A stretch of 64,000 bases of DNA from IMG/VR virus record IMGVR_UViG_3300022744_000001, positions 2,022 through 66,021 of that record; one strand, given 5' to 3'. Below are positions 4,155-51,189 of the stretch, in pieces (position 1 is the first letter of the stretch; every line of letters begins with the position of its first letter). Source of the stretch: a virus. The notes beneath the pieces are model-generated. The model saw nothing but the letters and a program-made list of their open reading frames with translations. It was not told the origin of the DNA and did not search any database. A program made the position numbers and the translations under genes.

Positions 4155-4242
4155 TGGTGGAGGATGATGGAGTCGAACCACTCAGCCTTAATGACGCCTC
4201 GTTTACAGCGAGACCTGCCTCCCGGGGCACACGTCACCCTCC
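4155..4242 (-). tRNA. tRNA-Tyr (GUA), class II with long variable arm, CCA encoded
   Basis: Reverse complement GGAGGGTGACGTGTGCCCCGGGAGGCAGGTCTCGCTGTAAACGAGGCGTCATTAAGGCTGAGTGGTTCGACTCCATCATCCTCCACCA. The anticodon loop is CTGTAAA. Confidence 0.7.
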
Positions 4243-11656: not shown

Positions 11657-11701
11657 TTGAACCTCTACCCCTAGAACGTGCGAGCCCCAGAGAATCTATA
11701 C

Positions 11702-12523: not shown

Positions 12524-12578
12524 TTCCCAGACAAACTACTAGGTATTTGACTACCTGGCAATAGGGTAGACCGTAAAT

Positions 12579-15650: not shown

Positions 15651-15817
15651 CAGGCCAGGTGGTTGTCGTGTGCCTCGTCCTCGATGCGACCCGTGCCGCT
15701 ACAAGTCGGGCAGGTCCCTTCCGGCTGCCCATACGGACCCAGATAGCCCTCCCCGCCGCAACGGGGGCAGTCAACGGCGAGGAGGGCTTGGATAGCGGGG
15801 AGCCGGTCGTCACTCAT
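15572..15817 (-). CDS. DnaJ-type CxxCxGxG zinc-finger protein (81 aa)
   Basis: The motifs CPRCGGEGY and CPTCSGTGR are present. Confidence 0.55.
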   Translation of the reverse strand: MSDDRLPAIQALLAVDCPRCGGEGYLGPYGQPEGTCPTCSGTGRIEDEAHDNHLAWCVAEIKKLRARDQLWQQTTGQSDPD

Positions 15818-19324: not shown

Positions 19325-19381
19325 GTTGTGCACGGTGTGCGGTTGTACTGAGTGTGCAAGCGGCCCGGTGTAGAGGGCTCC

Positions 19382-21241: not shown

Positions 21242-22999
21242 GTGATGGACCTCGTACTCCGCGTCGCCTCTCACTTCCTTGTCGGCGGTTTCATCCCCGA
21301 CAAGTTCTTCAAGGCCAAGACGGCCGAGCTGAAGAAGCTCATGCTCACCCCGGCCGGGATGCCCGACGTGACCTCGTTCGAGATTCACGACCGGGTCATC
21401 CCCTTCTACAAGAAGTTCGAGCAGGAGTTGCTCGAGTTCGGGGTGCACCGCTTCGCGGAGGAGTCCATCCGCAGTCGGTTCGAAACCATGCGAGGCATGG
21501 CGGAGAAGATCGCCGAGGGGGCAGCCGGGTTCCACAAGGCCACGAACCAGTTCCCTCCTCGCGGCCCCAAGACCGAAGTCCTGACATCCCTCGAGATGGC
21601 GGTACGAGGCGCCTACGGGGAGAAGGTCAAATATCTCGGGCACGCCTTCAAAACCCAGTGGTTCATCGACGGTGGCCAGCTCGAGGCTTTGGCTGACCGC
21701 CTTTTGAAGAAGGCCACGCCCGCAGAGCTTGGCGCCTTGGAGAGCGCTTCGAACGACGACTTCCGCTCCTCTGTTCTTGACCTCAAGTACGGGTTCTTGA
21801 AGCGAGTGAACGCGGAAGCCGCGGCGCTCAAGCTGGTCAAGAAGACCAAGATCACCTGGGACCCCTTCCAGCGCATCGAGATACTTCGTGCTGCGCTCGA
21901 GGCCAACTACTCGGACAAAGCGGACATGGCGCCTACCGAGTTCGACCTGTTCGGAATGAAGATCGTGGTCAACGACCAATCCGTGGACCAGGACCAGGTC
22001 AATAAGTACGTCGGCTACCTCAAGGAAGCCTACGCTCGCCTCAAGGCCAAGGGGTTTGCCAAGGTCTGGTATGGCACCGTTCTCATCGACTGCCAGCAGT
22101 GCGGGGGCGTCAACTACAACGACGGGGGCGAGGTCGGGGGCCACTACAACATCGGGAAAGACTGGGTGAAGATCTTCGAACGCCCCGGTCCTTTCATCGT
22201 GAAGTTGATGGCTCACGAGCTGGGGCACCGGCACTGGTTCAAGGGCATGTCCTCGGAGCAGCGAGCCCGGTTCAACTCCCTGGTCCGCACGCACGAGGGT
22301 CGAAACCCAAAGAAGGCTGAGGCCAAACTCATCCCTCTCTCCACCGTGGTGAAGCGTCGAAGCACCCTGGACGAAGTTCTCAACCCGCTTGCCAAGGCTC
22401 TCGACCAAGCACTCAAAGACGCTGAAGCACAACGGTTCGACAAGGAGAAGGCCAGGGAGCTTCGGTCTTTCGTCCGCGGGGACGCCCAAGCCCTTTCGAG
22501 GCTGTACCAGTTGGGCTCGAACATGGTCGAGCGGAACGGGGACCTCTACCAAAGCCGTGAGTCACTCCAGCTCGGAACCGAGTTCAGCAAGCTGCTCATG
22601 GATGTGGATGCCGAGTTGGTAGACAAGCTCAACGAGATCCTCAACACGAGCTTGGACTTCAATGAGTCAATCGAGTTCTGGGCGGGCCACTTCCTGACCC
22701 AAACAAAGAAGCTGCACGAGCTGGGCGAGCAGTACCTCATGGCCACGATGAAGGGGCACAACGAGACTGCCAAAATCGAGGCAGAGAAAGCCAAAACCGA
22801 GATCGACACGGCTTGGGGTGCCGACCCCCGCCAAGTCATGCCTGTCTCGGACTACGGCTCATCCAACATCGATGAGGCATTCGCCGAGGTGTTCATGAAG
22901 TACGTCATGGGCGACGACATGAATCGAGACCAGCTCGAGTCGTTCAAGTCTGTGTTCGCCTCGACTGAGGAGTACGACGACCACGACTTCGACGACTAG
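21242..22999 (+). CDS. large hypothetical protein with HExxH zincin-like motif (585 aa)
   Basis: The motif LMAHELGHRHWF is present. The gene ends on TAG. Confidence 0.6.
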   Translation: MMDLVLRVASHFLVGGFIPDKFFKAKTAELKKLMLTPAGMPDVTSFEIHDRVIPFYKKFEQELLEFGVHRFAEESIRSRFETMRGMAEKIAEGAAGFHKATNQFPPRGPKTEVLTSLEMAVRGAYGEKVKYLGHAFKTQWFIDGGQLEALADRLLKKATPAELGALESASNDDFRSSVLDLKYGFLKRVNAEAAALKLVKKTKITWDPFQRIEILRAALEANYSDKADMAPTEFDLFGMKIVVNDQSVDQDQVNKYVGYLKEAYARLKAKGFAKVWYGTVLIDCQQCGGVNYNDGGEVGGHYNIGKDWVKIFERPGPFIVKLMAHELGHRHWFKGMSSEQRARFNSLVRTHEGRNPKKAEAKLIPLSTVVKRRSTLDEVLNPLAKALDQALKDAEAQRFDKEKARELRSFVRGDAQALSRLYQLGSNMVERNGDLYQSRESLQLGTEFSKLLMDVDAELVDKLNEILNTSLDFNESIEFWAGHFLTQTKKLHELGEQYLMATMKGHNETAKIEAEKAKTEIDTAWGADPRQVMPVSDYGSSNIDEAFAEVFMKYVMGDDMNRDQLESFKSVFASTEEYDDHDFDD

Positions 23000-24189: not shown

Positions 24190-27100
24190 TCAGGCCGGTA
24201 CATGGGGCATGATCCACCAGTTGGTCCCGTCGCAAGCTGCATGGAATCCTTGGCGCCCAGATGCCCCGAATGCAACACCGGTAGTGGCCAAAGTTCCGTT
24301 GATGTTTCCGGAGCTGGATTTCAATGTGAAAGTGTTGCTATCCGTGGTGGTCTTCATGAGTGTAAGAGAGTGTCCACCGCTACTAGCAGGTGCAGGCAGC
24401 TGAATGTTTGCGATAGCTCCGCCTGATGTGTCGATCATAGTAAACGCGCCAGAAGACAGAGTTCCGCTGCCTCCGAGTGAGTCTACCTTTGAAAGAATGA
24501 TGGCTCCATACCCAACGCCGAACCCGGACCCGGGCCGACGCCCCACATAGAGGTCTACTGAGTTTGTGGTTAGAACTGCGGTGCCTGCTGCTGGGGCGAT
24601 AACCACTGCGCCGTGGTCGCCAGAGCCAGCAGGGGCGCCCGTGGTCAGCGTGATGTCTCCGCCGTTCTGGTTGCCGCCGACAGCCGAAGTTGCTGTGATG
24701 TTGACCGCGCCGCCGACCCCAGAAGTGGCTGTGGTGCCCGCAGAGATATTTACGGTGCCACCAACACCATTGGCGTTGTTGGCGCCTCGGACCGTGACCG
24801 AGCCAGCGGTTCCAGACCCGGTTGAGACACCGCCTGCGATAGTGATGCTTCCACCATTTTGGTTGCTTCCAGCAGCTGCACCCGCGGTAACGACGATGGC
24901 GCCACCTGTGCCTGAACCGCTAGCAGCACCAGCAGTGATAGTGACTTGGCCGCCAGCCCCCGAGGTTGAACCGCCAGCCCCCGCAAGGAGCAGAGCAGTA
25001 CCTCCGCTACCTGTAGCGCCTCCAGCTCCCGCACGAAGGGACGCGCCACCTCCCCCAGAAGAGCCTCGGCTGCTGCCTGCGGTGAAACTGATATCTCCAC
25101 CGGCGCCGGACGTAGCAGAAGCATTCGCGCTGCCTCCTGTAGCGGTGAAGCTACCGCCGTTGCCGCTACCAGTGCCGCCGGTACCTCCAGTGAAGGTAAA
25201 GGAACCGCCGACACCAGTTTGACCAGCTCCACTCGAGGCCGCTCCCGCGTTGAATGTGAAGCTTCCGCCGTTGTTGGCGCTCAAGCTTCCACCGCTGCCG
25301 CCAGTGAAAGTGATCGAACCGCCAGAGCCGCTCGATGTGCTGCCACAAGTGAGGGCGATGGAGCCACCAGCACCCGATGTTGAAGCGCCCGCAGTGATTT
25401 GAAGGGCTCCGCCAGCACCAGAGGTAGAACCGCCCACGCCTGAGAACAGCTGGAGAACAGCACCTGCTCCCGTTGCGCCCGAGGTACCGGGTTGAACCAG
25501 AAGGGCGCCCGCCGCCGAAGCACCGAAACCATCACCGGTTCGAATCGTGGTGGTTCCGCCAACCGCCGACGAACCGCCAGAGACGGCATCCGCCCCCTTG
25601 ATGGTTACAGAGCCTGCTGTGCCGCCGTTAGTCGGGGAGCCACCCGTGATGGTGATTGCACCACCAGCTTGAGTGGTACCTACGCCCGCTCCGCCCGTGA
25701 TGGAGAGGGCTCCGCCAGCACCAGACGTCGTAGCTGCACCACCCTGGAGAGAAAGGGTGCCTCCAGCTCCAGAAGTGGCACCACCAGGACCGCCTTTGAC
25801 GACTACCGAGCCGCCCGTGTTGGTACCTCCAGGAGTGCCGCCTTGGATGGTGACTGTGCCACCGTTACCCGCGGCAAGAGAGGTGCCTCCGTTGATGTTG
25901 AGGGCACCACCAGCACCGGTCAGGCCCCCGGTACCTCCCTGTGCTGTCAGGGAGTACCCAGTTCCAGCTCCGACAAGATCGGCAGGTTTGATAGTCGGGG
26001 AGGTGCCAGTGGTAACAACCACCCCGCTATCAATCAATGCTGTAGCCGCCGAGCTACTCCAGACGGGGACCCCGTTGGTGTTCCCAGAACCTGGGCCTGT
26101 GACCCCGCCCCCACCTCCGGTTCCTCCAAGAGGGAGCACTCGCCACGCGTTGCTGGTGTAGTCCCGCACTAGCAACGCCGCAGAACCACCAGTCAGGGAG
26201 TAATCGGTTGCCGAAGGGCAAATAAGCCGATTGAATGCAGACGATCCAGCATCTTGGTGTTTGAGGGTCAGTGTCGTACTGGAGCGGTTTACAAGGAAAC
26301 GCTGTGAGTAGGACAGGTCGAGGTCAGTGTCGCGGAAGAAGCCCGTAACGGTTGCACCCGAAGTGACCGCATCAAAAAAGATCGTCCGCGCAAAACGCCA
26401 CTTGTAGATGTCTCCAAGCTTGTAGTCGTTGTTGGTGCCGCTGACCGAGACCGACGCGGTCTGCTCGATGGAGGGGTAAGTGAAAAGGTTGTCACTCGTC
26501 CCGCCAAAGTTGTTGTTCGCGAACTTCGAAGCGTTGTTGTTCGTTGCGTCGGTAGTGACAGGATTGTTGAACAACACGATTGAGGCCGGGGCACCGTCGT
26601 CAACCAAGTACCCAGAGGTTCCGACGTTCGCGTTGAAGATCTGAAGGTACCCTCCGTTGGTAATGAATGGGTACCCTGTGATACCTGCCAACCAAGTGCT
26701 TGCTGGGAATTCACAATAGACGTCGAGCGATCCGCCATTGCCTGCATTAATCCACGAAGACGTTGCGGCCCCATCGGTGTAGAGCTGGGAAAATCTCCCC
26801 AAGGTAATCGAGGGGTAATCGCTGGGGCTCATCGTATAGAGGGCCCCAGACGTCTTGTGGTTGACCATCACTACGTTTTCGATTCGACGAGGCAGCTTAA
26901 CGATGACCGCGGGGTCATAGAAGTTCATGACCGCTGTGCCGAGAGGATCTGTTGACGAGCGGCCAACGATCTCACAGTCCGTGAAGTCAAAGGAGTTGCT
27001 ACCGCTAAGGGGTACATTCGTAAGCAGCGTGATTCGACACGGGCCAGGGTGCCTTGCTGCAAGAAGCAGAGCCATGTCGTTATACGTGTTGCCCGAAGGT

Positions 27101-27192
27101 GAGGCTCCCGAGTCAAACACGAAGTCAGCCACCACGATTTCCTCGAAGGTGTGCCCAGCGGCGCTCGACAAAACTGGATAGCGATTCGACAT
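24190..27192 (-). CDS. glycine-rich repetitive tail-fibre-like protein (1000 aa)
   Basis: N-terminal 350 aa is a globular, beta-rich domain. This is followed by about 450 aa of GGxGG/TGGTG repeats (not collagen Gly-X-Y) and a C-terminal domain ending CDGTNWWIMPHVPA. Confidence 0.75.
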   Translation of the reverse strand: MSNRYPVLSSAAGHTFEEIVVADFVFDSGASPSGNTYNDMALLLAARHPGPCRITLLTNVPLSGSNSFDFTDCEIVGRSSTDPLGTAVMNFYDPAVIVKLPRRIENVVMVNHKTSGALYTMSPSDYPSITLGRFSQLYTDGAATSSWINAGNGGSLDVYCEFPASTWLAGITGYPFITNGGYLQIFNANVGTSGYLVDDGAPASIVLFNNPVTTDATNNNASKFANNNFGGTSDNLFTYPSIEQTASVSVSGTNNDYKLGDIYKWRFARTIFFDAVTSGATVTGFFRDTDLDLSYSQRFLVNRSSTTLTLKHQDAGSSAFNRLICPSATDYSLTGGSAALLVRDYTSNAWRVLPLGGTGGGGGVTGPGSGNTNGVPVWSSSAATALIDSGVVVTTGTSPTIKPADLVGAGTGYSLTAQGGTGGLTGAGGALNINGGTSLAAGNGGTVTIQGGTPGGTNTGGSVVVKGGPGGATSGAGGTLSLQGGAATTSGAGGALSITGGAGVGTTQAGGAITITGGSPTNGGTAGSVTIKGADAVSGGSSAVGGTTTIRTGDGFGASAAGALLVQPGTSGATGAGAVLQLFSGVGGSTSGAGGALQITAGASTSGAGGSIALTCGSTSSGSGGSITFTGGSGGSLSANNGGSFTFNAGAASSGAGQTGVGGSFTFTGGTGGTGSGNGGSFTATGGSANASATSGAGGDISFTAGSSRGSSGGGGASLRAGAGGATGSGGTALLLAGAGGSTSGAGGQVTITAGAASGSGTGGAIVVTAGAAAGSNQNGGSITIAGGVSTGSGTAGSVTVRGANNANGVGGTVNISAGTTATSGVGGAVNITATSAVGGNQNGGDITLTTGAPAGSGDHGAVVIAPAAGTAVLTTNSVDLYVGRRPGSGFGVGYGAIILSKVDSLGGSGTLSSGAFTMIDTSGGAIANIQLPAPASSGGHSLTLMKTTTDSNTFTLKSSSGNINGTLATTGVAFGASGRQGFHAACDGTNWWIMPHVPA

Positions 27193-27320
27193 GGTCCCTC
27201 AACTGGAAAACAGCTGCTACCCAAGGCTGGTTTGACAGTAGTTTATTGGGGGCTTTCGCTAACCCTTCAAGCTTCGATAAGCCTCTCATGTAGAGCGCTA
27301 GGCATGAAGGTGCGGTACCC

Positions 27321-28517
27321 ATGACTGCCTCAGCTATCTGCCAGGTCCAAGACGGCGCTGGGCCGTTCCTGACCCCTACCAACGGCCTCGACGTCACTCA
27401 AGGCAATACAGTCTCGATCACGCTCGCTTCAACGACTGACGTGTCTGTTTGGACGCTTCAGATCTTTGGCGTGGATGAAGTCACAGCGACGGCTCCAACG
27501 CTTTCAGGGGTAGACCCGGACACGCACCAAGTCACGACCCCAGGGACAACCGTCACGTTCACGGTTCCGGCTGGGGCGGGCATCGGTCGAGCGTTCCTCA
27601 TTCGCTCTTCCGTGAATGGTGGTGGGTCGAGCCTCACCACGACTTTCGGGCTGTACACGCTGACGTCTTCTGGGCGACGGGTTGGCGCAGTCGGAGAGCG
27701 CTTTGAAGGCAACAACCTTTTCGGGTGGGCCTCGACGGTCAACTCCATCATCCGTGCCGGTGGCGGGGGTGGCGGACTCCCTCCGTTGGCGGGGGTGCAG
27801 TACGCAGTTTTGATGGAAGACCCAGTCGGGGTCCTCACCTTCCAGCAACTGACTCAGAACATGATTGCCCCGGCTTTCGCGATTGCGTCTTTCGCGAAAA
27901 CCGCCCCCAGCGGTTCCGCAACCTTGGTTCGCCGCGGGCAGCTGCTCTCAGGTCTCACAGCAGCCGCGACCTACACTTCCGGGCCCCCAACCTCGGCGAG
28001 CATCGCCAACACGTTAGGGGGCAGCTCAGACGTCGGGGACAACCCCCCGGGGCCTTGGACGATCAACGCCCCTTACGCCACGGCTTCCATGTCTGGGGCG
28101 ATCAGGCGGATCGGTTCTGACCTTGGGTTGAACCCAACCTGGACCTTCACTCTGACCGCCACGAAAAACGCACTCTCGGTTCAGAGCGGCGTGACCGTCA
28201 CATGGACCCGAGACGTGTACTGGGGCGTCGGCCCGGCTGGCTTTTCCACAGAAGCGGACATCGTGGGGTTGGCGGGTAGCACGCTTCAAGTCGGGCGAAA
28301 CCGCATCATCACGGTGAGCCCCTCGAACGAGAAAGTCTACTACGCCTACCCCAAGGCAGATGGCCTCGCCACATTCACTTTGAACAACTTCCCAGCCTCG
28401 TTCCTGGCTCCGGTCGAGGTGCAAGTCACCAACGTCAACAGCGTGACGAGCACCTACTACCTCTACGAGTCAACGAACCTCCTCACCGGTTCCAACCTCA
28501 ACTTCGTGGTGACGTGA
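27321..28517 (+). CDS. hypothetical structural protein (398 aa)
   Basis: Clean ORF between the two fibre genes, rich in Thr, Ser and Gly. Confidence 0.55.
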   Translation: MTASAICQVQDGAGPFLTPTNGLDVTQGNTVSITLASTTDVSVWTLQIFGVDEVTATAPTLSGVDPDTHQVTTPGTTVTFTVPAGAGIGRAFLIRSSVNGGGSSLTTTFGLYTLTSSGRRVGAVGERFEGNNLFGWASTVNSIIRAGGGGGGLPPLAGVQYAVLMEDPVGVLTFQQLTQNMIAPAFAIASFAKTAPSGSATLVRRGQLLSGLTAAATYTSGPPTSASIANTLGGSSDVGDNPPGPWTINAPYATASMSGAIRRIGSDLGLNPTWTFTLTATKNALSVQSGVTVTWTRDVYWGVGPAGFSTEADIVGLAGSTLQVGRNRIITVSPSNEKVYYAYPKADGLATFTLNNFPASFLAPVEVQVTNVNSVTSTYYLYESTNLLTGSNLNFVVT

Positions 28518-28518
28518 C

Positions 28519-29820
28519 ATGGCCATCGGGTTAACTGACATTCTCGTTGCGCTTGGCAACTTCCCGCTGCTCGAGGACATCTTCTTGAAGGGGGGTTTTC
28601 GGGCGGTAGATAACCCCGAAGCGAGAGACGACATTGACCCCAGCATGCAGAAAAGCGGGATGCTCGTTTGGGTGGAGTCCGAAGGGAAGCTCTACCAAAT
28701 GGCAGAAGGGTGGGTTGAGGTCTCTCTTGGGCCAGGCAACGGCTCTACTAACACAGTCCCCGTTTGGTCAAACCCCTCGAACACTCTGGCAAACAGCACA
28801 GATTCGATCGGGGCGGTTAGGTTAGGCTCAAGTGCCGGACAAAACATCATCGTACAACCCACAGCATCCCTTGATGCTGGAGGTGCGAACGTAGAGGTCA
28901 ACGGAGGGGCGGGCGGGCCGACTTCCAATGGAGGTTATGCCTTACTTTACGGCGGTGCTGGTGGGGAGACATCTGGAGATGGCGGCAACGCCTATGTGGC
29001 AGCAGGCGATGCGACCACCGAGGGTCACGGCGGGTACGTTACAATCAATGGTGGTTATGCCGAAGGCACTGACAAAAACGGCGGAAGTGTTCATCTTGAA
29101 GGCGGGCTCCCAACTGGACTCGGGTCACCTGGGAGTATATCGCTCCAAGCGGCGGGCAACACTTCAACAGTTGGCGGCAACGTTGTCCTTAGTGTTGGAG
29201 AGGGCTCGTCCGCCGCTAATGATGGTACCGTACTAATTGCTACCGTAGGAAACTCCAGTCGCGCAGCCCGTCTTCAGTTCCTTGGGAGTAACACTAACCC
29301 CATCAGCATCAAAGCCCCGGCAACGGTCACCACCTACGAGATGACGCTTCCTAGCTCCCAAGGCGGAGCAGGTACCGTTCTGACCAACGATGGTAGCGGC
29401 GGTTTGACTTGGTCCGCTGGTGGCGGAGGCATGGGGGACTATCAGATTAACGCTTCTGTAACGTCCCCTGACGCCACTCCCTTGACGGTTCACACTTACA
29501 CGGACCCAGTGAACACTGATCGTGCCATTATTTGCTATGACATTTTAGCGACGGCGATTGGGCCTTTCGGGAACCGCTACGCGTCGTTCAAAATCAATGC
29601 AGTGTTCGAAATGGACGCCATTTCCGAAGTGATCCACCCTCGAGAAGTCACATACCTAAACGGCCCTGTTCGGACAAACCCCGCTTGGAATGTGCAGTTT
29701 GACATCGTGGGGGCTGACATCAATCTTCAAGTGGTTGGCGAGTCCAATGGTACCGAAGGAACACGATGGCGGATCGTCGGGTTCATTACTCGCAGCGGCT
29801 TCACGTTCTCCGAGGCGTGA
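28519..29820 (+). CDS. glycine-rich tail-fibre-like protein, paralogous to 24190..27192
   Basis: It shares the TN(T/G)VPVWS motif and GGAGG-type repeats with the 1000-aa protein. Confidence 0.7.
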   Translation: MAIGLTDILVALGNFPLLEDIFLKGGFRAVDNPEARDDIDPSMQKSGMLVWVESEGKLYQMAEGWVEVSLGPGNGSTNTVPVWSNPSNTLANSTDSIGAVRLGSSAGQNIIVQPTASLDAGGANVEVNGGAGGPTSNGGYALLYGGAGGETSGDGGNAYVAAGDATTEGHGGYVTINGGYAEGTDKNGGSVHLEGGLPTGLGSPGSISLQAAGNTSTVGGNVVLSVGEGSSAANDGTVLIATVGNSSRAARLQFLGSNTNPISIKAPATVTTYEMTLPSSQGGAGTVLTNDGSGGLTWSAGGGGMGDYQINASVTSPDATPLTVHTYTDPVNTDRAIICYDILATAIGPFGNRYASFKINAVFEMDAISEVIHPREVTYLNGPVRTNPAWNVQFDIVGADINLQVVGESNGTEGTRWRIVGFITRSGFTFSEA

Positions 29821-30262
29821 TGAGCTTCGATAGCACGTCGAGGAATCCGACGTTGTAGAGCGCGTTGGGTCGTCGCTCCTGGACGACCCGAATGCACTCC
29901 TCCCCGGTCATGCCCGTGAGCATGTGCAAGGCCAGGGCACTCACGAGCCCACTACGGTTCCACCCCATCTGGCAGGTGACCAGCACCGGTCTCTTGGCTT
30001 GGAGGGCCAGGGTGACGCCCCGAGCCCCCTTTACAGCGATGTGCAGCTCCCGCTCCGTGATGGGGCGCTCTTGGTCCTCGTTTGGGGCGTAGATGACCTC
30101 GAGCCCAGGGAACCGCTTCTCCGGGGGCTGGTTCTCTTTGGCGCAGAGAACGAGCACCTTGAACCCCACGGAAGCCAAGTAGCTCCCCTCGGGGGGCTTG
30201 GAGCCTTGCCAGAGGCCAGGGTGGATTTCGTTGACATCGAGCCCTGCGGGGTAAACCTTCAT
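29801..30262 (-). CDS. dual-specificity / protein-tyrosine phosphatase (CX5R)
   Basis: VTCQMGWNRSG matches the HCxxGxxRS P-loop. Confidence 0.75.
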   Translation of the reverse strand: MKVYPAGLDVNEIHPGLWQGSKPPEGSYLASVGFKVLVLCAKENQPPEKRFPGLEVIYAPNEDQERPITERELHIAVKGARGVTLALQAKRPVLVTCQMGWNRSGLVSALALHMLTGMTGEECIRVVQERRPNALYNVGFLDVLSKLITPRRT

Positions 30263-30874: not shown

Positions 30875-31156
30875 ATGCATGCAGGGGAAGCAAATCCGGT
30901 AGGTCGTGAACCGGCCATTGAGCGGGCGATACGCTTCTCCTTTGGCAGGGATGGCTCTCGCGCACAAGCAGCACTCCCAAGGCTTTTTGGTGATGGTCCG
31001 GGCCCAGAGGACTCGGACAGTGCAGCCCTCGACGGTCAGGTTGGAGAGGTAGGAGGTCCCGGGGAGGAACTCCTTCTTGTTCGTGATTGAGACCACAGAG
31101 TAGGTTTGGCACAGAACCGGTGTCAGTGTCACCGATGCGTGATGCCCCCGCCCCAC
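30857..31156 (-). CDS. Cys-rich hypothetical protein (99 aa)
   Basis: ORF with a CCLC...CFPC pattern. It overlaps the ARH start. Reality uncertain. Confidence 0.3.
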   Translation of the reverse strand: MGRGHHASVTLTPVLCQTYSVVSITNKKEFLPGTSYLSNLTVEGCTVRVLWARTITKKPWECCLCARAIPAKGEAYRPLNGRFTTYRICFPCMHKDESG

Positions 31157-32049
31157 TTCTTGGTCAAGCCATCGCTGATGCCCTGGGTATGCCGTTCGAG
31201 TTGTGTGGTCCCGAAGATCCCAAGTTGAAGGACTGGGATGGGCAGACCTACCACTCGAGCGAGTACCACAAGCTCATGCCAGGGCAGTGGTCCGACGACA
31301 CGATGATGGCCAAGCTCCTGGCCGAAAGCCTTCTCCAGGTGGGCGGGTATGACCCGGAGAACGCAGCCAAACGCTACCTGGGTTGGTACAAGAGCGGGGA
31401 CCACCGGGGGATGGGGACGGCGACCAGGACCGCCCTCGGTCGCCTGGACGAGGGCAAGGATTGGTCGGAGTCCGGAGTCGAGAACGCCCAGGGGAACGGG
31501 ACCGCCATGAGGGCGATCCCTCTCGGGGTTTTCTTCCGGAACCGTCTCGACCTCCTCGTCGAGGCTGCAAGCTTGGACTCTCACATCACCCATCGGTCGG
31601 ACGAGGCTGAGGAGGGGGCGATCGCAATCGCCCTGGCTGCCGCATACCTCTACCGTGGCCTCCCGAAGGATGAGCTTCCAGAGGCTATCTCGAGGCGGCT
31701 CAAAGACGGCCCCATCAAGACCGGAGTCATGAAGTGCGAGTTCTACCTTCGCACCGGCGGAGTCTCGGTTGGGGAAGCACTCCGAGTCATTGGCACGAAA
31801 CCCCACGTGGTCCAGACCGTGCCCGCTGCCCTGGCCGCGTTCCTTTTGTCCAAGACCTACCTGGAGGCTGTCCAAGCTGCGATTCGGGCCGGGGGCGATA
31901 CGGACACCACAGCCGCCATCGCCGGTGGCCTGGCGGGCATCTACTACGGTCGCCAAGCCATCCCCGCGGACCTCATCCCTCCGCTCGAGGCCGCAGACGC
32001 CCTCAGTGGGCTCGACTTCCAACTCAACACCCCTGCCCGTGAACTCTGA
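31135..32049 (+). CDS. ADP-ribosylglycohydrolase (ARH/DraG family)
   Basis: GQAIADALGMPFE, GQWSDDT, GNGTAMR and GGDTDTTAAIAGGLAGIYYG are characteristic ARH motifs. Confidence 0.85.
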   Translation: MRDAPAPLLGQAIADALGMPFELCGPEDPKLKDWDGQTYHSSEYHKLMPGQWSDDTMMAKLLAESLLQVGGYDPENAAKRYLGWYKSGDHRGMGTATRTALGRLDEGKDWSESGVENAQGNGTAMRAIPLGVFFRNRLDLLVEAASLDSHITHRSDEAEEGAIAIALAAAYLYRGLPKDELPEAISRRLKDGPIKTGVMKCEFYLRTGGVSVGEALRVIGTKPHVVQTVPAALAAFLLSKTYLEAVQAAIRAGGDTDTTAAIAGGLAGIYYGRQAIPADLIPPLEAADALSGLDFQLNTPAREL

Positions 32050-33051: not shown

Positions 33052-33729
33052 GTGGACAGTAGCGCAGAAGAGTTTGAGCAGATAGTGCGCGAGAGTTTAT
33101 CCGCTGCACAAGCCCTACGAAAACTGGACCGGGCTACCGTGGGGTCCAACTACGACTGGGTGCGTCGGGAGGTTCAACGGTTTGGGCTCGACACATCTCA
33201 CTGGGGAAGAGCTGGTGCTCGCAATACAACCCCGAACCTCGATGAGGTTTTCATTGAGAATGGTGCCTACTCAACAGGTCTTGTTAAGACGATCATTCTT
33301 CGTGAACGTTTACTCCCGGAGCTGTGTGCTGAGTGTGGATTAGGACCCTCCTGGAGGGGTAAGAAATTAGTCCTCCGCCTTGACCACAAAAACGGGAAAC
33401 GAAGTGATCACCGGCTCGGAAACTTGCGTTTTCTGTGTCCGAACTGCGACTCTCAAACAGAGACATTTTGCGGTCGCAACAAACGTCTCCCAGCCAAGCT
33501 GTGTAAATGCGGGGTGGCAATAGGGCAGCAGTCCGCAGCTTGCAGGTCGTGCACGGCAAAAAGCAGAAAACCAACAACGAAAATCGTTTGGCCTCCATTC
33601 GAGGAAGTGCAGGAAAGGGTCAAAAACACCTCCTTCCTTGCCACAGCCAAACATCTTGGTGTATCAGATAATGCAGTTCGGAAGTTTTTACGCTCCCGTG
33701 CCCGAGTGGTTGAAGGGGCAGGATTCTAA
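33052..33729 (+). CDS. HNH homing endonuclease
   Basis: LDHKNGKRSDHRLGNLRFLCPNCDSQ is an HNH motif. GC content is locally lower. The stop codon lies inside the downstream tRNA. Confidence 0.8.
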   Translation: MDSSAEEFEQIVRESLSAAQALRKLDRATVGSNYDWVRREVQRFGLDTSHWGRAGARNTTPNLDEVFIENGAYSTGLVKTIILRERLLPELCAECGLGPSWRGKKLVLRLDHKNGKRSDHRLGNLRFLCPNCDSQTETFCGRNKRLPAKLCKCGVAIGQQSAACRSCTAKSRKPTTKIVWPPFEEVQERVKNTSFLATAKHLGVSDNAVRKFLRSRARVVEGAGF

Positions 33730-33784: not shown

Positions 33785-34111
33785 TCAAGAGCGTAAAGCG
33801 AGAGGAAGCCGCTGAACAAGTCGTTTTGCGGCGGGCTCGAGCGCGATGGCGGTCACCTCGTTGTCTCGGTCCGGCTCCCGAAACAAGCTGACCCTGAACC
33901 CTCGACGGGTCGCATCCTCCGCGAGACGAGTCAGGGAAGGCTCATCAGGGCTCTCGAGGAGAGCGAGGTAGTTCGACTGCTCGAACCACTCCCGCTCGAC
34001 CTCCGGGTGCTCCGCGACGAACCCTCGCATGGCGTGAGCTGCTTGGACAGCTTGCGCGCCAAGAGGGAGGTCGCTTCGGACAATGAGGTAGAGTTTGTCA
34101 CCCATCCTCAT
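33785..34111 (-). CDS. peptidyl-tRNA hydrolase, Pth2-like
   Basis: KLYLIVRSDLPLGAQAVQAAHA and a Pth2-like length (108 aa). The stop codon is 1 nt after the tRNA CCA. Confidence 0.55.
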   Translation of the reverse strand: MRMGDKLYLIVRSDLPLGAQAVQAAHAMRGFVAEHPEVEREWFEQSNYLALLESPDEPSLTRLAEDATRRGFRVSLFREPDRDNEVTAIALEPAAKRLVQRLPLALRS

Positions 34112-36461: not shown

Positions 36462-36956
36462 ATGATCAAGTACCTCAAGGGCGACGCTACCGAACCCCAG
36501 GGCGCCGGAACCAAGTTCATCATCCACGTGGTCAACGACCGAGGCGGTTGGGGCGCAGGTTTCGTTTTGGCCCTCTCCCGCAAGTGGAAGGGGCCCGAGC
36601 AGTCGTATCGGAAGTACAGCCCACTCACTCTCGGCCAGATTCAGGTGGTGCCCGTCGAGCGACATCCGGGAGGCGTCCCGTACCTCTACGTCGTGAATAT
36701 GTGTGCCCAAACGGGGTACGGCCGCGGCAACCGGAACCTCCACCGTACCAACGAACCCGACGACCAGATCCCGTTGCGGTACGACGCCCTCCAGACGTGT
36801 CTTGAGCAAGTTGCAGAAGAGGCCACTGTCCTCGGCGCTGCAATCCACGCTCCTCGGTTCGGGTGCGGGCTCGCCGGGGGAAAGTGGGAGCTTGTCGAGC
36901 CCATCATTCAAAGTGCCCTTGAAGACCTTCCCGTTTTCATCTACGACCTGCCGTGA
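36462..36956 (+). CDS. macro domain protein (ADP-ribose binding/processing)
   Basis: IIHVVNDRGGWGAGFVLAL and AIHAPRFGCGLAGGKWELVEPII resemble the Gly-rich loops of MacroD/Appr-1-pase macro domains. Confidence 0.65.
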   Translation: MIKYLKGDATEPQGAGTKFIIHVVNDRGGWGAGFVLALSRKWKGPEQSYRKYSPLTLGQIQVVPVERHPGGVPYLYVVNMCAQTGYGRGNRNLHRTNEPDDQIPLRYDALQTCLEQVAEEATVLGAAIHAPRFGCGLAGGKWELVEPIIQSALEDLPVFIYDLP

Positions 36957-41981: not shown

Positions 41982-43628
41982 CTAAGTGAATCGGTGCCCG
42001 CCGGACTCCTTGGAGTCGTACATGGCGGCATCCGCGATCCGTACAAGGCTCTCAGGCTCACGCCCGTGCGTTGGGAACAAGGCCAGACCGATGCTGGCGC
42101 GAACCCCAACCTCTTCTCCGGAGGGCAGCTCGATAGGCTCCCCTACCAAGTTGAGGATCTTCGTCGCCACTGGGCCTGCATCGCCTTCTTGCGCAAGGTC
42201 GTCCAGCACAACGACGTACTCGTCGCCCCCTAGTCTGGCCACGACGTCGGTTCTTCGCACGCAAGCTCGGAGCCGGGCCGCGACCTCCTTGAGCACGATG
42301 TCTCCAGCGTCATGGCCGTGAGTGTCATTGACCTCTTTGAAGCCGTCGAGGTCGATGAACAGGACTGCGAGCTTGCTGTCGTACTGCTCTGCTCGAGCGA
42401 GCTTCGAAGCCAACGTGTTCATCAGCGTCGCCCGGTTCTGGAGCCCCGTGAGCGGGTCAGTATGGGCTGCTTTGATGAGGGCTGCCTCGGTCCTCTTTCG
42501 CTCAGTTACGTCACGGGCCACAACATAGAGCTTCCCCTCCACGTGAGCAGGGAAGTGCCAGGAGAGCCATCGCCACGTCCCATCTTTGCACCGGGCCCTG
42601 CACTCGAACTTCACCCCGTCGTAACCGCTGGCGAGCTTTGAGAGCTGCTCCTGCATGTCCATCCGGTCATCCGGGTGGAGCAGGTCGAAGATGGGGCGGC
42701 AAAGCAGCTCGTCCTCGGAGAAGCCCAGGACGCGAGTGAACGAGGGGTTCACTCGGATGAAGTAGCCGTCAAGCCGTGCGACACAGATGAGGTCAAGGCT
42801 CACGGTGAAGAGTCGATCGCGCTCTTCCTCGGCTCGTTTGCGGTCCGTGACGTCGGTGGCGGCCCAAAGGTAGCCAACGAGGTCTCCGGTGTCTTCTCGC
42901 ATGACCACCGTCTTCGCGCTGACCCAGAGAATGGATCCGTCGGGCCGAAGAAATCGGAACTCATGCTCGAACGAGAGGCCGAGGTCTGTGAGCCGCCGCC
43001 ACGCCATCATGACCGCTCGTCGGTCGTCTGGGTGCACAGCTCGAGTCCAGCCTTGCCCGTAGCACTCCTCGAGAGACAGGCCGCACATCTCCGACCAGGT
43101 TCGGTTCACAAACCCGCACCGGCCATGCTCGTTGGTCATGAGGGTGCCCGCGGGGGTCTCGTGGATGAACGCTCGGAGCTTGCTCTCGCTCTCGCGAAGG
43201 GCCCGCTCCATGTTCTTGGTGGCAGAGATGTCCCGGAAGGTGAGTAGAGCCCCGTGCGGTTTCTGCCCAGGCTTCTGAAGCGGGCGCGTGTTCGTGCTGA
43301 CCCAAACGGCAGTCCCATTCGGGCGAGCAACCTCCAGCACAACACTCGAGAGGGCGATGCCCGTGCGCAGGGACACTACGGCCGGGTGGTCATCCTTCGA
43401 AAGGAGAGACCCGTCCTCGCATGAAATACGAGGCGCATCGGACATATACTTTCCGATCAGGTCCTTCTCTGTAACCCCGAGGATCCGGGCCGCACAAGGG
43501 TTCGCCTCAACGATCTGTTCGGTTGCATCGATGACGAAGACCCCCTCCTCCATTGATTCGATCAAGGAGCGGTAGAATGCCTCATCTAACTGCAATCCCG
43601 CACTTTTGGTTACGTCTGAGTTCGGCAT
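41982..43628 (-). CDS. PAS-PAS-PAS-GGDEF diguanylate cyclase-like protein (GGDEY variant)
   Basis: Three PAS-like blocks are followed by LFIDLDGFKEVND and RLGGDEYVVVL. The gene ends on TAG. Confidence 0.8.
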   Translation of the reverse strand: MPNSDVTKSAGLQLDEAFYRSLIESMEEGVFVIDATEQIVEANPCAARILGVTEKDLIGKYMSDAPRISCEDGSLLSKDDHPAVVSLRTGIALSSVVLEVARPNGTAVWVSTNTRPLQKPGQKPHGALLTFRDISATKNMERALRESESKLRAFIHETPAGTLMTNEHGRCGFVNRTWSEMCGLSLEECYGQGWTRAVHPDDRRAVMMAWRRLTDLGLSFEHEFRFLRPDGSILWVSAKTVVMREDTGDLVGYLWAATDVTDRKRAEEERDRLFTVSLDLICVARLDGYFIRVNPSFTRVLGFSEDELLCRPIFDLLHPDDRMDMQEQLSKLASGYDGVKFECRARCKDGTWRWLSWHFPAHVEGKLYVVARDVTERKRTEAALIKAAHTDPLTGLQNRATLMNTLASKLARAEQYDSKLAVLFIDLDGFKEVNDTHGHDAGDIVLKEVAARLRACVRRTDVVARLGGDEYVVVLDDLAQEGDAGPVATKILNLVGEPIELPSGEEVGVRASIGLALFPTHGREPESLVRIADAAMYDSKESGGHRFT

Positions 43629-47835: not shown

Positions 47836-48612
47836 ATGCGCCAGGACATGCCCAAAGTCGTTGTTGAACGTGGGCGCACCAACGCCACGTACAGCTACCG
47901 CGACCACCGCTCCTCTCGGAAAAAGGCAGAGGATGACCTCCCTCGCAACGAGGGGATGCGTCGTCCTTATGGCTGGGAGAAGAAGCAGCTGAACGAGACG
48001 CTCGCACCATTGCGTCGGTTCCTGCGTAGCCGAGTCGGGCAGCCGTGGGACAAGGTCTACTCCGAAATCAGCGAGAACCTGAAAGCCTCGAATCCGGTTC
48101 AGCAGCACGTCCGCGACCACCTGAAGGACTACGTGTTCTTCACCGTCGTTGTGAAGAACGGGCGTTACGAGGGACCTCGTCGTGGTGACCTCGGCTGGAC
48201 CGTTCGCCTGCGCAAGGGTGACCTTTACGTGAACGAGGCTGGCATCCTCTGCCAGCTCCGCCATGACGGGCCTAAGAAGGGCGACTCCCGGTACAAGTCG
48301 TACGTGGTCTCGGCCATCACTGAGAAGGCGGGCGGGAGCCGCCACCTTCACCGGACGAAGACGACCTACTTCCTGGCCCGGAAGAAGGACTATGCACCCG
48401 CGAGCGGTGAGGTCGTTGTCGAAACCATCGAAGCTGTGTCCTTCGAATCGGCCCGGGACCTCTTCAACGAGCGCTACCGCAAAAACCCCGTGGTGGCGGA
48501 GAGCTGGGTGTCCTCGGTCAACTGTCGCTGCACGAAGTGCATCCAATACCAGTCCGAGAGCCACCAGATGAGGCAAGCTCGCGAGCGAGAGAAGCTCAGC
48601 GCAGCTGGATAG
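47836..48612 (+). CDS. hypothetical basic protein (258 aa)
   Basis: Clean ORF with a C-terminal CRCTKC motif. Confidence 0.5.
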   Translation: MRQDMPKVVVERGRTNATYSYRDHRSSRKKAEDDLPRNEGMRRPYGWEKKQLNETLAPLRRFLRSRVGQPWDKVYSEISENLKASNPVQQHVRDHLKDYVFFTVVVKNGRYEGPRRGDLGWTVRLRKGDLYVNEAGILCQLRHDGPKKGDSRYKSYVVSAITEKAGGSRHLHRTKTTYFLARKKDYAPASGEVVVETIEAVSFESARDLFNERYRKNPVVAESWVSSVNCRCTKCIQYQSESHQMRQAREREKLSAAG

Positions 48613-49153
48613 GGGCAGCCTTCTTTGTCGTGAACGCCTGCTCGGTTTCCTCGTTCGTCACGATGCCGATGTTCTTGATCTTGTCCGTGGGGAAGCCGAA
48701 GAAGCCCGAGAACATGGCGCCCATGCCTGTCTCGTATTGGTCTCGGTAGGCTTGCTGGCGCGCGATCAAGGACTTCTGGTCAGCTTCGAAGCTCTGGCGG
48801 CCCGACTGGATTTGCAGCTGGATTCGCTCATACATCTTCGAATCGAAGTTCGGGTTGTGCTCCTTGATGAACTGCACCAGGGCCTTTGACCCATCCGCCC
48901 CGTAGCGGCTTTGGATGGCCCCGTCGTAGACCTTCTTGAGGTCGTCCGTGTACATGGACGGGACCTGAGCCATCTCTTTGAGGGTGGAGAAGTAGTTCGA
49001 GTAGTTGTTCTTGTCTTGGTCGTACTGGGCAACGAGCCCGTTCTCCATGCGCACGCACGTGTTGTAGAAGCCGAACAGAACGAACGCGAAAATGATCACC
49101 ACCAGGAAAAGCCCAGCGATGCCTGCCAACAGAAACTTCATAGCCGTAGACAT
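48596..49153 (-). CDS. LemA family membrane protein
   Basis: N-terminal transmembrane helix and the MFSGFFGFP motif. Confidence 0.7.
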   Translation of the reverse strand: MSTAMKFLLAGIAGLFLVVIIFAFVLFGFYNTCVRMENGLVAQYDQDKNNYSNYFSTLKEMAQVPSMYTDDLKKVYDGAIQSRYGADGSKALVQFIKEHNPNFDSKMYERIQLQIQSGRQSFEADQKSLIARQQAYRDQYETGMGAMFSGFFGFPTDKIKNIGIVTNEETEQAFTTKKAAPIQLR

Positions 49154-49165: not shown

Positions 49166-50056
49166 TCAACCCTCAAGGGTTTGGTAGAACTTTTCGACGT
49201 CGAGTGCGATGGTGACCGGGTAGGGCCCTGGCTCGCCCACGAACGTGAAGTCCGTATCGGGGCGGGTCCCCCACTCACCCTTTTCTCGGTAGGGGAAGCC
49301 TCGGACCCAAGTAGCGGCCGACGGGTTGATAGCCAGCGCAACTGCGATGACGTCATGCAGGGCTTTGCCGTTCGGGTGCTTCTGAAAGTAGGTGAGCATC
49401 CCAAGCTTCAAGAGGTCGAGTCCTGGGTGAGCCCCGTCCGGAAGCTGAACGCTCTGGTCGTAGATGATCCCGTGGCACACGTTCTTGGTGACAAATCGCT
49501 TGGTAGGGATGGCTTCAGTTGAGATCAGGGCTTTGGCCGCGGGAACGTCCCCGTTGAGGTTGAACGTCGGGCAGGTGATGCGGCCTTCGAATTTGGGAAG
49601 GCGGAATTCCGGCGGCACCACGTTGTCGCCTGCAAACCCGCCCTGGCAGGTCCAATTCTGGAAGAACGGTTTGGCTCCTCGAGCTTGGAGGGCCTCGTGG
49701 ACATTGGTCAGGGCGGCCCCCGTGACAAGGTGGGTTGCGCCCCCATCGAGAGCCCCGTGGATGACCTCGACCGCGGTCCCGTCTGGGATGCAAGGACCAA
49801 AGCCCCCCAACCAGTCACGGTAGAACCCAGCCACTCGAGGCGCTTCCTTCTTGGGTGTCCCAGCCCCTACAAGCACGTCTGGGCGGCCCAGAAGCGCCAG
49901 GACGTGCTTGGCCAACCCGACCTGGTCGTGACCTCCAGGGAAGACTGTGATGGCCCGCAAATCCACTCGAGGGTGGGTTGCGAGGATGCAGAGGGCCATG
50001 GCGTCATCGGGGTCGCCGGTCTCCATGTCGAAGACCATCTTGATTCGTTTGGCCAT
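49166..50056 (-). CDS. nucleoside hydrolase (IU-NH family)
   Basis: DMETGDPDDAMAL (aspartate cluster), LVTGAALTNVHEAL and TFNLNGDVPAAKA match IU-NH motifs. The start was trimmed to the Met at 50056, which is TGATG-coupled to the upstream gene. Confidence 0.7.
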   Translation of the reverse strand: MAKRIKMVFDMETGDPDDAMALCILATHPRVDLRAITVFPGGHDQVGLAKHVLALLGRPDVLVGAGTPKKEAPRVAGFYRDWLGGFGPCIPDGTAVEVIHGALDGGATHLVTGAALTNVHEALQARGAKPFFQNWTCQGGFAGDNVVPPEFRLPKFEGRITCPTFNLNGDVPAAKALISTEAIPTKRFVTKNVCHGIIYDQSVQLPDGAHPGLDLLKLGMLTYFQKHPNGKALHDVIAVALAINPSAATWVRGFPYREKGEWGTRPDTDFTFVGEPGPYPVTIALDVEKFYQTLEG

Positions 50057-51189
50057 CACCGGTGCCTCTTGTGTGTGGGCTTCTCGTCCCCGAACACGTC
50101 GTGGTAGTGGAACACGAACATCAGCCCAATCGAGATCGCTAACCCGATGATCACGGACACGACCCACTGGGTTGTTGTGGGTACAACGCTCGCGGCGAGG
50201 TACTCGAAGTCCTTCATGGGCTTGCGTTGGTAGTTCTGAATCACATGAGAACGAAAGAGCCCGAGGATGGGTTCGCGCTCGAGAGGGAGCCCTTGAACCG
50301 CGGCCTCCAGCTCGACTTCGAAGTTCTTCCTCACGGTCCAAGCCATGACCTCGGCCCACACGATCTGGTTCGTTTGGTCGAGACCTAGAACCAGCACCGC
50401 GTCATTTTTCTTCGCTCCAACCCAGAACTCTTCCAGGGCGTAGAAGAAGTCACGCGGCTTGTGGGACACGACCACGATGAGGTTGACCTGTTTTTTCGGC
50501 CCCACCTCGCCGTTGATTTTCTCGAGCTGCCGGTTCCACTCGTCCGCATCAGGCAAGGCCACCCCCACCTGCACGAGCCTCTTCAAGTGCCAGTAGTCGT
50601 AGACCTGGTCCGGGTAAGCAGGCAGGACATCCTGATACTTCTCCGTGAGCCCTTGGTGGCGGAATACGGAGTCGGGAGAGGCTTTGACGTAGTTCTCGTA
50701 CGAGTGGGTCCGAGCTACCGGCTCGCCCACCTTCGTGGCACCCCAACGGGGAGGCGTGATCGTGCCTTGCCGGTCGATACGGGAGATCTCGAATTGGCCG
50801 AGTGACGTGTAGACATCCCAGTCGAAATCATACGGGTGGTCGTAACACGTCTCGTAGCAGGTGTCATAGCAACGGTCGTAGCAGTAGCTGGGGTTCTTGG
50901 CCGTGCCTCCGCACTTGCGTCGGTTGCAGTTGTGCGGGTTGCATTTGTACGGGTGGCATCGGTAGCTGTGTTCGCAGCTCACCCGCTCTTGCTTTTTGCC
51001 GGTCACTGTACCGTTGAGGACTTCAACGTCGCCGGTGTCCTGGTAGTAAACGATCGCGGCCGAGCCGCCCGCTACCATGGCTTGAGCGGCCAAGTGGAGC
51101 GCGAATTCCTTCCACGTGATGCCGTGGAAGAAAGCGCGGCCAACGATAGCCGGGAGAATGGCGACTGCGAATAGAAGTAGGAAGACCAT
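50056..51189 (-). CDS. two-TM Cys-rich membrane protein (377 aa)
   Basis: Hydrophobic N- and C-termini and a Cys cluster CEHSYRCHPYKCNPHNCNRRKCG. Confidence 0.55.
   Translation of the reverse strand: MVFLLLFAVAILPAIVGRAFFHGITWKEFALHLAAQAMVAGGSAAIVYYQDTGDVEVLNGTVTGKKQERVSCEHSYRCHPYKCNPHNCNRRKCGGTAKNPSYCYDRCYDTCYETCYDHPYDFDWDVYTSLGQFEISRIDRQGTITPPRWGATKVGEPVARTHSYENYVKASPDSVFRHQGLTEKYQDVLPAYPDQVYDYWHLKRLVQVGVALPDADEWNRQLEKINGEVGPKKQVNLIVVVSHKPRDFFYALEEFWVGAKKNDAVLVLGLDQTNQIVWAEVMAWTVRKNFEVELEAAVQGLPLEREPILGLFRSHVIQNYQRKPMKDFEYLAASVVPTTTQWVVSVIIGLAISIGLMFVFHYHDVFGDEKPTHKRHR

Follow-up and report, generated by a model that had tools for sequence, protein, structure and literature searches.

What does a huge virus gain from a sensor enzyme for a bacterial second messenger? 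The question is raised by a gene in IMG/VR virus record IMGVR_UViG_3300022744_000001, of which we analyzed a stretch of 64,000 nucleotides (positions 2,022 to 66,021 of the record; hereafter the window). Read directly from the list of open reading frames (ORFs), the gene occupies positions 41982..43628 on the minus strand, from an ATG start to a TAG stop, and encodes a protein of 548 amino acids (aa), in which three PAS domains precede a GGDEF domain whose signature reads GGDEY. Judging from its sequence, its relatives, and its gene context, the protein is probably a catalytically competent, cytoplasmic, product-inhibited sensor diguanylate cyclase of a ~450–470-kb tailed-phage-like lineage, predicted to raise the level of cyclic di-GMP (c-di-GMP) in the host.

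The domain scores of the protein were far beyond chance. Pfam GGDEF (PF00990) matched with E 7.8e-45, covering profile positions 1-160 of 161, and three PAS stretches were recovered both by Pfam (PAS, E 1.6e-41; PAS_4, E 1.4e-40) and by NCBIfam ('sensory_box' over three stretches, E 2.2e-62), the latter also returning the TIGR00254 GGDEF family (E 2.2e-44). A scan of PHROGs with the cyclase gave several GGDEF families labelled 'unknown function'. The gene is free of frameshifts and premature stops. An AlphaFold2 model built from a 16-sequence alignment reached a mean predicted local distance difference test score (pLDDT) of 86.9 and displays three PAS folds, a GGDEF fold, and a linker helix at about residues 375-415 (domain boundaries in Table 1), with a predicted template modeling score (pTM) of only 0.39 because the packing between domains is uncertain. 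No membrane helix was apparent, the top 19-residue hydropathy window (1.62) lying within the well-folded PAS1. Light-oxygen-voltage (LOV) domains are recognized by a GxNCRFLQ signature with an adduct-forming Cys, and heme-binding PAS domains by a ligating His in a FixL/DosP-type pocket. The NCRF motif was not found in the cyclase sequence, and Foldseek comparison of the model with DosP, FixL, LOV-PAS, and NifL gave fold-level matches only, at 14-20% identity.

The catalytic residues that we checked are in place in the GGDEF domain: D426, K431, N434, D435, H439, D443, R465, G467, G468, D469, E470, and K540 are invariant across the 16 aligned sequences. An initial annotation, made from the letters of the window alone, had described the three-PAS plus GGDEF architecture, the GGDEY signature, and an intact active-site (A-site) stretch, all of which we confirm; it had also listed the inhibitory site (I-site) RxxD as a point to check, without having noticed that the motif is present, as RRTD, five residues (V-V-A-R-L) before the signature. 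The protein departs from the textbook GGDEF pattern at two places, namely the Tyr at motif position 5 and a Gly four residues after K540 (K-E-S-G-G-H-R). The latter position holds Gly in 27, Arg in 46, and Lys in 25 of 113 homologs, and with Gly this common we do not take the K-x-x-G-G-H-R ending as an indication of an inactive enzyme.

Solved structures align well with this domain. The closest chain by sequence is the GTP-bound GGDEF domain of PA0575 (5m3c, E 7e-37), and the modeled domain overlays the GGDEF domain of YfiN/TpbB (4iob) in Foldseek with a root-mean-square deviation of 0.9 Å at 44% identity; for the 'active-like dimer' of Thermotoga maritima (4urg_B) the value is 2.7 Å. Query residues 385-545 align with residues 285-446 of the PleD chain 1w25 (E 5.5e-27) at a constant offset, which supports the PleD equivalents that we take to be D327, K332, N335, D336, D344, R359-D362, and G368-E371. 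Hallberg et al. (2019) write the GGDEF signature as [G/A/S]G[D/E]E[F/Y], and report that GGDEF domains work as dimers with one GTP per monomer (PMC6456294). In the same account the base is met at its Watson-Crick edge by Asp in canonical enzymes and by Ser in Hypr synthases of cyclic GMP-AMP (cGAMP), such as GacA with Ser348, and a Hypr Ser-to-Asp mutant is solely a diguanylate cyclase (PMC6456294). The corresponding residue here is Asp443 (Table 1).

To place the protein among its relatives, we searched 5.8 billion proteins and recovered another eight clusters that share the architecture and are 48-74% identical to it (P0002-P0009), which makes nine orthologs with the query. A second tier (P0010-P0016, of which P0012 carries the name Myxococcaceae bacterium) has ~42% identity across 95% of the length, and beyond it come generic PAS-GGDEF proteins with at most 34% identity. 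All nine members of the first group combine GGDEY with an RR[S/T/N]D I-site, and all seven of the second combine GGDEF with R[A/S][S/T]D. Among the best 120 homologs GGDEY occurs in 11, nine of which are the clade itself. In a neighbor-joining tree of the PAS3 plus GGDEF core, the GGDEY clade was monophyletic in 100/100 bootstrap replicates, and it grouped with the Myxococcaceae-type proteins in just 23/100. We therefore read GGDEY as a fixed signature of the whole clade, pointing to an F-to-Y change at its base. The matches listed from 185,579 GTDB species-representative genomes, in a weak scan, and those listed from Joint Genome Institute (JGI) metagenomes with the clade alignment held only generic PAS-GGDEF proteins at no more than 32% full-length identity, and both scans are uninformative on where the clade occurs.

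Purifying selection acts on all four domains of the cyclase. The Nei-Gojobori ratio of nonsynonymous to synonymous substitution (dN/dS) lies at 0.07-0.26 in all four domains and at 0.10-0.15 in GGDEF (six orthologs with DNA, unsaturated dS only), synonymous sites are saturated in part of the ortholog comparisons, and the Tyr codon turns over between TAC and TAT among the orthologs. The gene has a GC content of 61%, matching that of its element (60%; relatives of the element, 52.5-60%) and not that of a Myxococcaceae contig (72-73%); the capture is therefore old. Myxococcaceae were considered as the host and not accepted, given the 23/100 sister grouping and the difference in GC (60% versus 72%). 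In our reading of these sequences GGDEY is not a degenerate motif, because it falls within the published signature, its Tyr is kept in nine orthologs, the other checked catalytic residues are invariant, dN/dS is low, and the GGDEF model fits YfiN. The protein is a regular member of the PAS-GGDEF cyclase family with a Tyr variant inside the accepted signature.

Around the cyclase, gene order is kept on six contigs (its own and five others, 34 kb to 470 kb), with some genes missing at individual loci, and runs Zn-ribbon, NT5C, phrog_2087 protein, DUF2786 (not always present), cyclase, convergent HD phosphohydrolase, zf_Tbcl, Metallophos, PTH2, and ADP-ribosylglycohydrolase. The gene had first been described as a stand-alone minus-strand gene among phage accessory genes. 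Its strand and its accessory-gene setting are borne out by this context, but it does not stand alone: a same-strand DUF2786 gene, with which it may be co-transcribed, lies 51 nt upstream, and an HD-superfamily gene converges on its 3' end. DUF2786 is also directly upstream of the cyclase in locus L006; at this place L002, L010, and L011 carry a same-strand gene with no annotation, and L007 and L008 have none. A promoter and terminator scan around the cyclase gene gave no signal above shuffled controls. The HD phosphohydrolase adjoins the cyclase in 6/6 loci, with overlapping 3' ends in 4/6, and its alignment displays an invariant H..H..HD..H..D pattern and no GYP motif; it had no match in PDB, Pfam, or NCBIfam. 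We considered this neighbor as an HD-GYP c-di-GMP phosphodiesterase and rejected it, the GYP motif being missing and no characterized relative having been found. The GGDEF-type cousin P0012 lies amid ordinary chromosomal genes (RNase J, a Ser/Thr kinase, a major facilitator superfamily transporter), and P0123, from a cousin cluster, was located to a contig of 3.66 Mb. The conserved block of related elements also carries insertions, among them a TnpB/Cas12f1-like gene (L008:3477-4892), a protein with a weak AcrVA2-like match (L011:17647-19002), and a cREC_REC domain protein (L011:7259-7609).

The element encodes a second cyclase. P0126 lies on the same 448-kb contig as the window, ~9 kb past its right edge and ~30 kb from the PAS cyclase, and consists of a GAF domain (residues 28-153) and a GGDEF domain (178-329, E 1.9e-39) with an RHSD I-site, a GGEEF signature, the specificity Asp, and K-Q-R-G-R-N. 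An ortholog with 61% identity, P0127, lies on a Logan contig of 75,547 bp, equal in size and source to that of the PAS cyclase ortholog P0003, so that joint carriage of the two cyclases is probable in at least two elements. The presence of two sensor cyclases that differ in their input domains raises the likelihood that the element uses c-di-GMP deliberately. Neither this GAF-GGEEF protein nor the clade-wide GGDEY had been noticed in the initial annotation. RNA families detected in the window were tRNAs only, with no c-di-GMP riboswitch.

The carrier of these genes is very probably a huge tailed phage. The exact cyclase protein occurs on a 448,224-bp contig of the European Nucleotide Archive (ENA; ERZ27252002:k141_47206), of which the window corresponds to ~326.7-390.7 kb, and orthologs lie on contigs of 469,776 (JGI 3300062794, Ga0604598_0000012), 127,685, 75,547, 50,300, 43,759, and 33,943 bp. 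The annotated part of the 448-kb contig, comprising the window and its flanks, amounts to 82 kb; ~75% of its ORFs are ORFans, and it holds no ribosomal or core-metabolism genes. phrog_1383 and phrog_2087 are found in 482 and 504 of 50,697 phage records, respectively, including the jumbo phages XacN1 and Aeh1, and in 5 and 10 of 72,556 plasmid records, some of which are 0.8-0.9-Mb replicons labelled plasmids. The two lie close together in Aeromonas phage Aeh1, and here an inosine-uridine nucleoside hydrolase gene stands between them. Genes for translation and nucleotide metabolism (Table 1), together with two NUDIX genes, NT5C, and, in the left flank, ThiF-like and nucleoside-deoxyribosyltransferase-like genes, form a set typical of very large phages.

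The region 24190-29820 is a probable tail-fiber module, as suggested by structural modeling. Fold matches of its 398-aa protein include annotated tail fiber, tail, and baseplate-wedge proteins, whereas a search against all solved structures gave generic Ig-like matches only (E 1.6e-4 or weaker). The adjoining 1000-aa protein is fiber-like by composition only and had no tblastn match in phages. The 398-aa family is modular, known from metagenomes only, and present on contigs of up to 512 kb, some of them equal in size to six contigs of the cyclase clade; several other huge contigs carry it without a clade cyclase, and the cyclase therefore looks like an accessory gene of a sub-lineage. PHROGs and NCBIfam searches with the large ORFans (1000, 585, 464, 433, 398, and 355 aa) gave no match beyond a weak hit of the 433-aa protein, and Pfam yielded sub-threshold hints only, for the 585-aa and 355-aa proteins (Table 1).

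In GGDEF enzymes, N-terminal sensors act by way of a connecting helix to gate productive pairing of the catalytic domains, and product binding at RxxD is inhibitory. In the phage protein, three PAS domains would receive an intracellular signal, which would pass through the long helix between PAS3 and the catalytic domain and govern the pairing of two GGDEF domains; the pair, holding one GTP each, would condense two GTP into c-di-GMP, and c-di-GMP would bind the RxxD I-site and cap the output. This virus-controlled c-di-GMP would add to the host pool, alongside that of the second phage cyclase with its GAF sensor. In most bacteria c-di-GMP controls motility, pili, exopolysaccharide, biofilm, and development, traits that decide phage adsorption and spread. 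The host might thus shift to a high-c-di-GMP state in which motility and pili are down, exopolysaccharide and adhesion are up, and the surface is altered, with possible gains in virus production, retention in a dense host population, and exclusion of competing phages. Such reprogramming of host c-di-GMP had been among the functions first proposed for the gene, and we retain it as the leading candidate.

Indirect support for the relevance of c-di-GMP to phages comes from four papers: the receptor glycan of N4 depends on c-di-GMP (PMC8669472), the host cyclase YfiN is a target of phage peptides (PMC8085984), lysogens of GGDEF-carrying Bordetella phages over-produce biofilm (PMC8471281), and in Myxococcus exopolysaccharide and development are under c-di-GMP control (PMC4877007). 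More speculatively, ~450-kb phages could carry a multi-input c-di-GMP sensory system of their own, an idea that we offer tentatively. At least two cyclases with different sensors (three PAS; one GAF) and intact feedback sites would let the virus read cues, which might be redox state, oxygen, light, or metabolites, and set the host level during a long infection. If true, this would be virus-encoded environmental sensing coupled to behavioral control of the host; if the enzyme is simply active and constitutive, it is one more host-derived accessory gene. The selected and syntenic sensor-cyclase pair is a test case for whether large viruses write host second-messenger levels from their own sensing, and the GGDEY clade is a natural test of Tyr tolerance at GGDEF position 5.

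Several observations weigh against a competent cyclase. Four residues after K540, itself invariant, Gly stands in place of the expected Arg, and purifying selection would equally be expected for a non-enzyme that binds GTP or c-di-GMP. PilZ, EAL, and HD-GYP genes and a c-di-GMP riboswitch were not seen in the 82 kb, leaving no phage-side receptor found there. The two other GGDEY proteins among the best 120 homologs (P0045, P0060) are unrelated PAS-GGDEF-EAL hybrids that branch elsewhere, and in GGDEF-EAL hybrids the GGDEF domain frequently has a regulatory and not a catalytic part. What PMC6456294 offers in its motif line is a signature, not an assay of the Tyr variant, and a biochemical test of any GGDEY enzyme was not found in the searchable literature, where 'GGDEY' returned unrelated peptides only. 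A silent GGDEF domain, serving as a c-di-GMP receptor through its I-site or as a GTP receptor or scaffold through its A-site, would read the host level instead of writing it; a degenerate receptor of this kind had been raised in the initial annotation. The strict conservation of RxxD, the fixation of F-to-Y at the base of the clade, the hybrid character of the remaining natural GGDEY cases, and the lack of an assayed GGDEY enzyme would suit such a protein, but all checked catalytic residues are invariant (the metal-binding Asp, D469/E470, N434, D443), GGDEF is the sole output domain, and the other cyclase of the genome is canonical throughout. GGDEF domains known to act as receptors lack catalytic residues of the A-site. 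With its A-site complete and its Tyr inside the accepted signature (PMC6456294), the phage protein is unlikely to be such a receptor. The further early suggestion of a different cyclic dinucleotide, interfering with signaling of the cyclic-oligonucleotide-based antiphage signaling system (CBASS) type, we regard as very improbable, whether as a product such as 3',3'-cGAMP or as a decoy for CBASS/STING-type defense. It draws on the unusual Tyr, which invites the idea of altered chemistry, and on the known interference of phages with cyclic-nucleotide immunity (PMC12657218). Hypr enzymes, however, carry Ser, and exchanging it for Asp makes pure diguanylate cyclases (PMC6456294), whereas every clade member and all 119 homologs examined have Asp443, and N434 is kept. 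No PADLOC family matched either cyclase or the HD, Metallophos, and DUF2786 proteins nearby, which speaks against a decoy. c-di-GMP, moreover, activates bacterial TIR-STING effectors and does not block them.

The phage identity of the element and the history of the gene can be questioned as well. The 82 kb that we inspected revealed no capsid, portal, or terminase gene, and a pattern scan of IMG/VR with the protein found no clade relative, both of which count against a phage-borne cyclase and would fit a megaplasmid, a large extrachromosomal element of some other kind, or a mis-binned piece of cellular DNA, with the cyclase as ordinary signaling cargo. The occurrence of phrog_2087 and phrog_1383 on a few 0.8-0.9-Mb plasmid-labelled replicons, and the Ig-like beta-sandwiches of the tail-fiber-like protein, which are present in adhesins too, point the same way. 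On the other hand, these two families are ~70-140 fold more frequent in phage than in plasmid records, and the 398-aa model matches Caudovirales proteins with E 8e-16 as opposed to just 1.6e-4 for any solved structure. The ORFan content, the tRNA arrays, the homing endonucleases, the nucleotide-metabolism set, and the lack of ribosomal or core metabolic genes in the 82 kb likewise favor a phage, as does, in a weak scan, the absence of clade members among the best matches in species-representative genomes; we thus consider a non-phage replicon improbable. A decaying passenger recently captured from a host chromosome, named at the outset as the fossil-gene explanation, would account for an architecture identical to that of chromosomal Myxococcaceae-type proteins, and is excluded because the orthologs have diverged, GGDEY is fixed in the clade, dN/dS is low, and the Tyr codon alternates. 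The saturated synonymous sites, the conserved synteny, the intact reading frame, and a GC content that follows the element agree with this, and we hold the passenger reading to be already refuted by the selection and synteny data.

Other features of the window fill in the picture of the element (Table 1). The CUA tRNA is a candidate Ser-type amber suppressor by its sequence features. TAG is the stop codon in ~31% of rough ORF calls, the cyclase and the gene upstream of it among them, but a TAG-recoding test prompted by this tRNA was confounded by the third-codon-position GC content (GC3) of antisense frames; reading through the TAG of the cyclase would add 18 aa only. The DUF6094-SNF2 helicase fusion gave weak PADLOC matches to the helicase regions of DpdE, BrxH, and ZorD. 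Judging from motif-level matches, the 355-aa ORFan may be a divergent phage sigma factor, and the ADP-ribosylglycohydrolase and the 164-aa protein may form a set that reverses ADP-ribosylation, possibly in counter-defense.

Table 1 Features of the PAS-GGDEF cyclase, its locus, and the surrounding element (positions in the window unless stated otherwise).
Feature	Position	Strand	Evidence or remark
PAS-PAS-PAS-GGDEF gene, predicted soluble sensor diguanylate cyclase	41982..43628	-	Pfam, NCBIfam, PHROGs scans; AlphaFold2 model; nine orthologs
PAS domain 1, aa 17-140	43209..43580	-	least conserved domain, mean identity 50% among six orthologs
PAS domain 2, aa 145-265	42834..43196	-	PAS_3 type, motif W..VHPDD; Pfam and alignment
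PAS domain 3, aa 275-385, then long linker helix into GGDEF	42474..42806	-	Pfam, AlphaFold2 model; PDB 8px4 PAS domain, E 2.8e-21
GGDEF catalytic domain, aa 388-545	41994..42467	-	Pfam; PDB 5m3c; Foldseek 4iob
A-site metal/base-binding stretch, D426-L-D-G-F-K431-E-V-N434-D435	42324..42353	-	invariant in 16/16 aligned sequences
Specificity residue Asp443	42300-42302	-	Asp in 119/119 homologs
I-site RxxD, R458-R-T-D461	42246..42257	-	R458 and D461 invariant in 16 aligned; RxxD in 113/119 homologs
Signature GGDEY, G467-Y471	42216..42230	-	Tyr in 9/9 clade members; Phe in 7/7 Myxococcaceae-type cousins
DUF2786 gene, 151 aa	43680..44135	-	Pfam DUF2786 at N-terminus; weak winged-helix match at C-terminus; ends 51 nt upstream of cyclase
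HD-superfamily phosphohydrolase, 214 aa	41196..41840	+	convergent with cyclase 3' end; phrog_19425, E 3e-22
Second cyclase P0126, GAF + GGDEF, 346 aa	L172:1-716; window-equivalent ~73.1-74.2 kb	-	same 448-kb contig
phrog_1383 gene, 'virion structural protein'	48596-49153	-	E 5e-53
phrog_2087 gene	50056-51189	-	E 6e-101
1000-aa protein	24190-27192	-	long Gly/Ser/Thr/Ala-rich repeat region
398-aa all-beta protein	27321-28517	+	model pLDDT 86.7; matches Caudovirales proteins, E 8e-16
433-aa partner protein	28519-29820	+	one weak unknown-function PHROG match
Array of 11 tRNAs: Arg x2, Ala, Glu x2, Thr, Asn x2, Lys x2, Tyr	507-4239	-	small ORFs interspersed
Peptidase_C1 gene	1646-2623		within tRNA array
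DUF6094 + SNF2-type helicase fusion, 1266 aa; GIY-YIG gene opposite its 5' end; N6/N4 DNA methyltransferase, 550 aa, nearby	7612-11412, 11399-14231	-	
355-aa ORFan	15814-16881	-	sub-threshold Pfam Sigma70_r2 and GerE-type helix-turn-helix
dCTP deaminase, peptide deformylase, and PTH2 genes	19352-20095, 20603-21220, 33785-34111	+, +, -	typical of very large phages
585-aa ORFan	21242-22999	+	HELGH zinc-metalloprotease motif; sub-threshold Pfam ATLF (anthrax-lethal-factor domain)
DSPc dual-specificity phosphatase	29801-30262		
ADP-ribosylglycohydrolase	31087-32049	+	
HNH endonuclease gene	33139-33729	+	directly before CUA tRNA
Class II tRNA (long variable arm), CUA anticodon	33692-33783	+	G73, encoded CCA; ARAGORN label 'Pyl'; Rfam tRNA, 52 bits
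164-aa protein	36462-36956	+	PHROG 'phosphatase' match; weak DarG-like (macrodomain) match

Among cellular proteins, the nearest likeness is the PAS-PAS-PAS-GGDEF protein of Myxococcaceae metagenome-assembled genomes (P0010-P0016, with P0012 = HVP61539.1), which has the same domain order, is collinear over ~95% of the length at 40-43% identity, and shares the RxxD I-site and all catalytic residues with the phage cyclase, but carries GGDEF instead of GGDEY and sits in a chromosomal setting on contigs of 72% GC. The best solved relatives, YfiN/TpbB (PA1120) and PA0575 of Pseudomonas aeruginosa and PleD of Caulobacter, have the same layout of A-site and I-site; they differ in being cellular proteins with other sensors (periplasmic/HAMP, EAL hybrids, receiver) and a Phe in the signature. 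The Hypr enzymes GacA and Bd0367, which make 3',3'-cGAMP, share the GGDEF fold and have Ser/Thr where the phage cyclase has Asp443.

Phage GGDEF genes have already been annotated in a few genomes, and the searchable literature yielded none that has been characterized. Bordetella Vojvodinavirus LK3 and Pseudomonas Yuavirus likewise carry such genes, but these are small temperate siphoviruses, the genes are annotated only, and their proteins are without the triple-PAS sensor. No phage record covered 80% or more of the cyclase, the matches being GGDEF alone or one PAS plus GGDEF, below 40% identity. Phage G (499 kb), of megaphage size like the present element, has a gp350 annotated as 'probable diguanylate cyclase DgcQ' (PMC12484599); its host is a Bacillus-group Firmicute (Bacillus megatherium in the jumbo-phage survey), and its likeness to our element is one of annotation alone. 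The main text of that survey of 224 genomes is silent on GGDEF cyclases, and the survey describes jumbo-phage HD-GYP phosphodiesterases, whose substrates are cyclic di- and oligonucleotides and which degrade the signal that the phage cyclase is predicted to make (Iyer et al. 2021, PMC7824862). Set beside these systems, what is new here is the triple-PAS sensor, the fixed GGDEY, the synteny within a lineage of ~450-kb elements, and the companion GAF cyclase.

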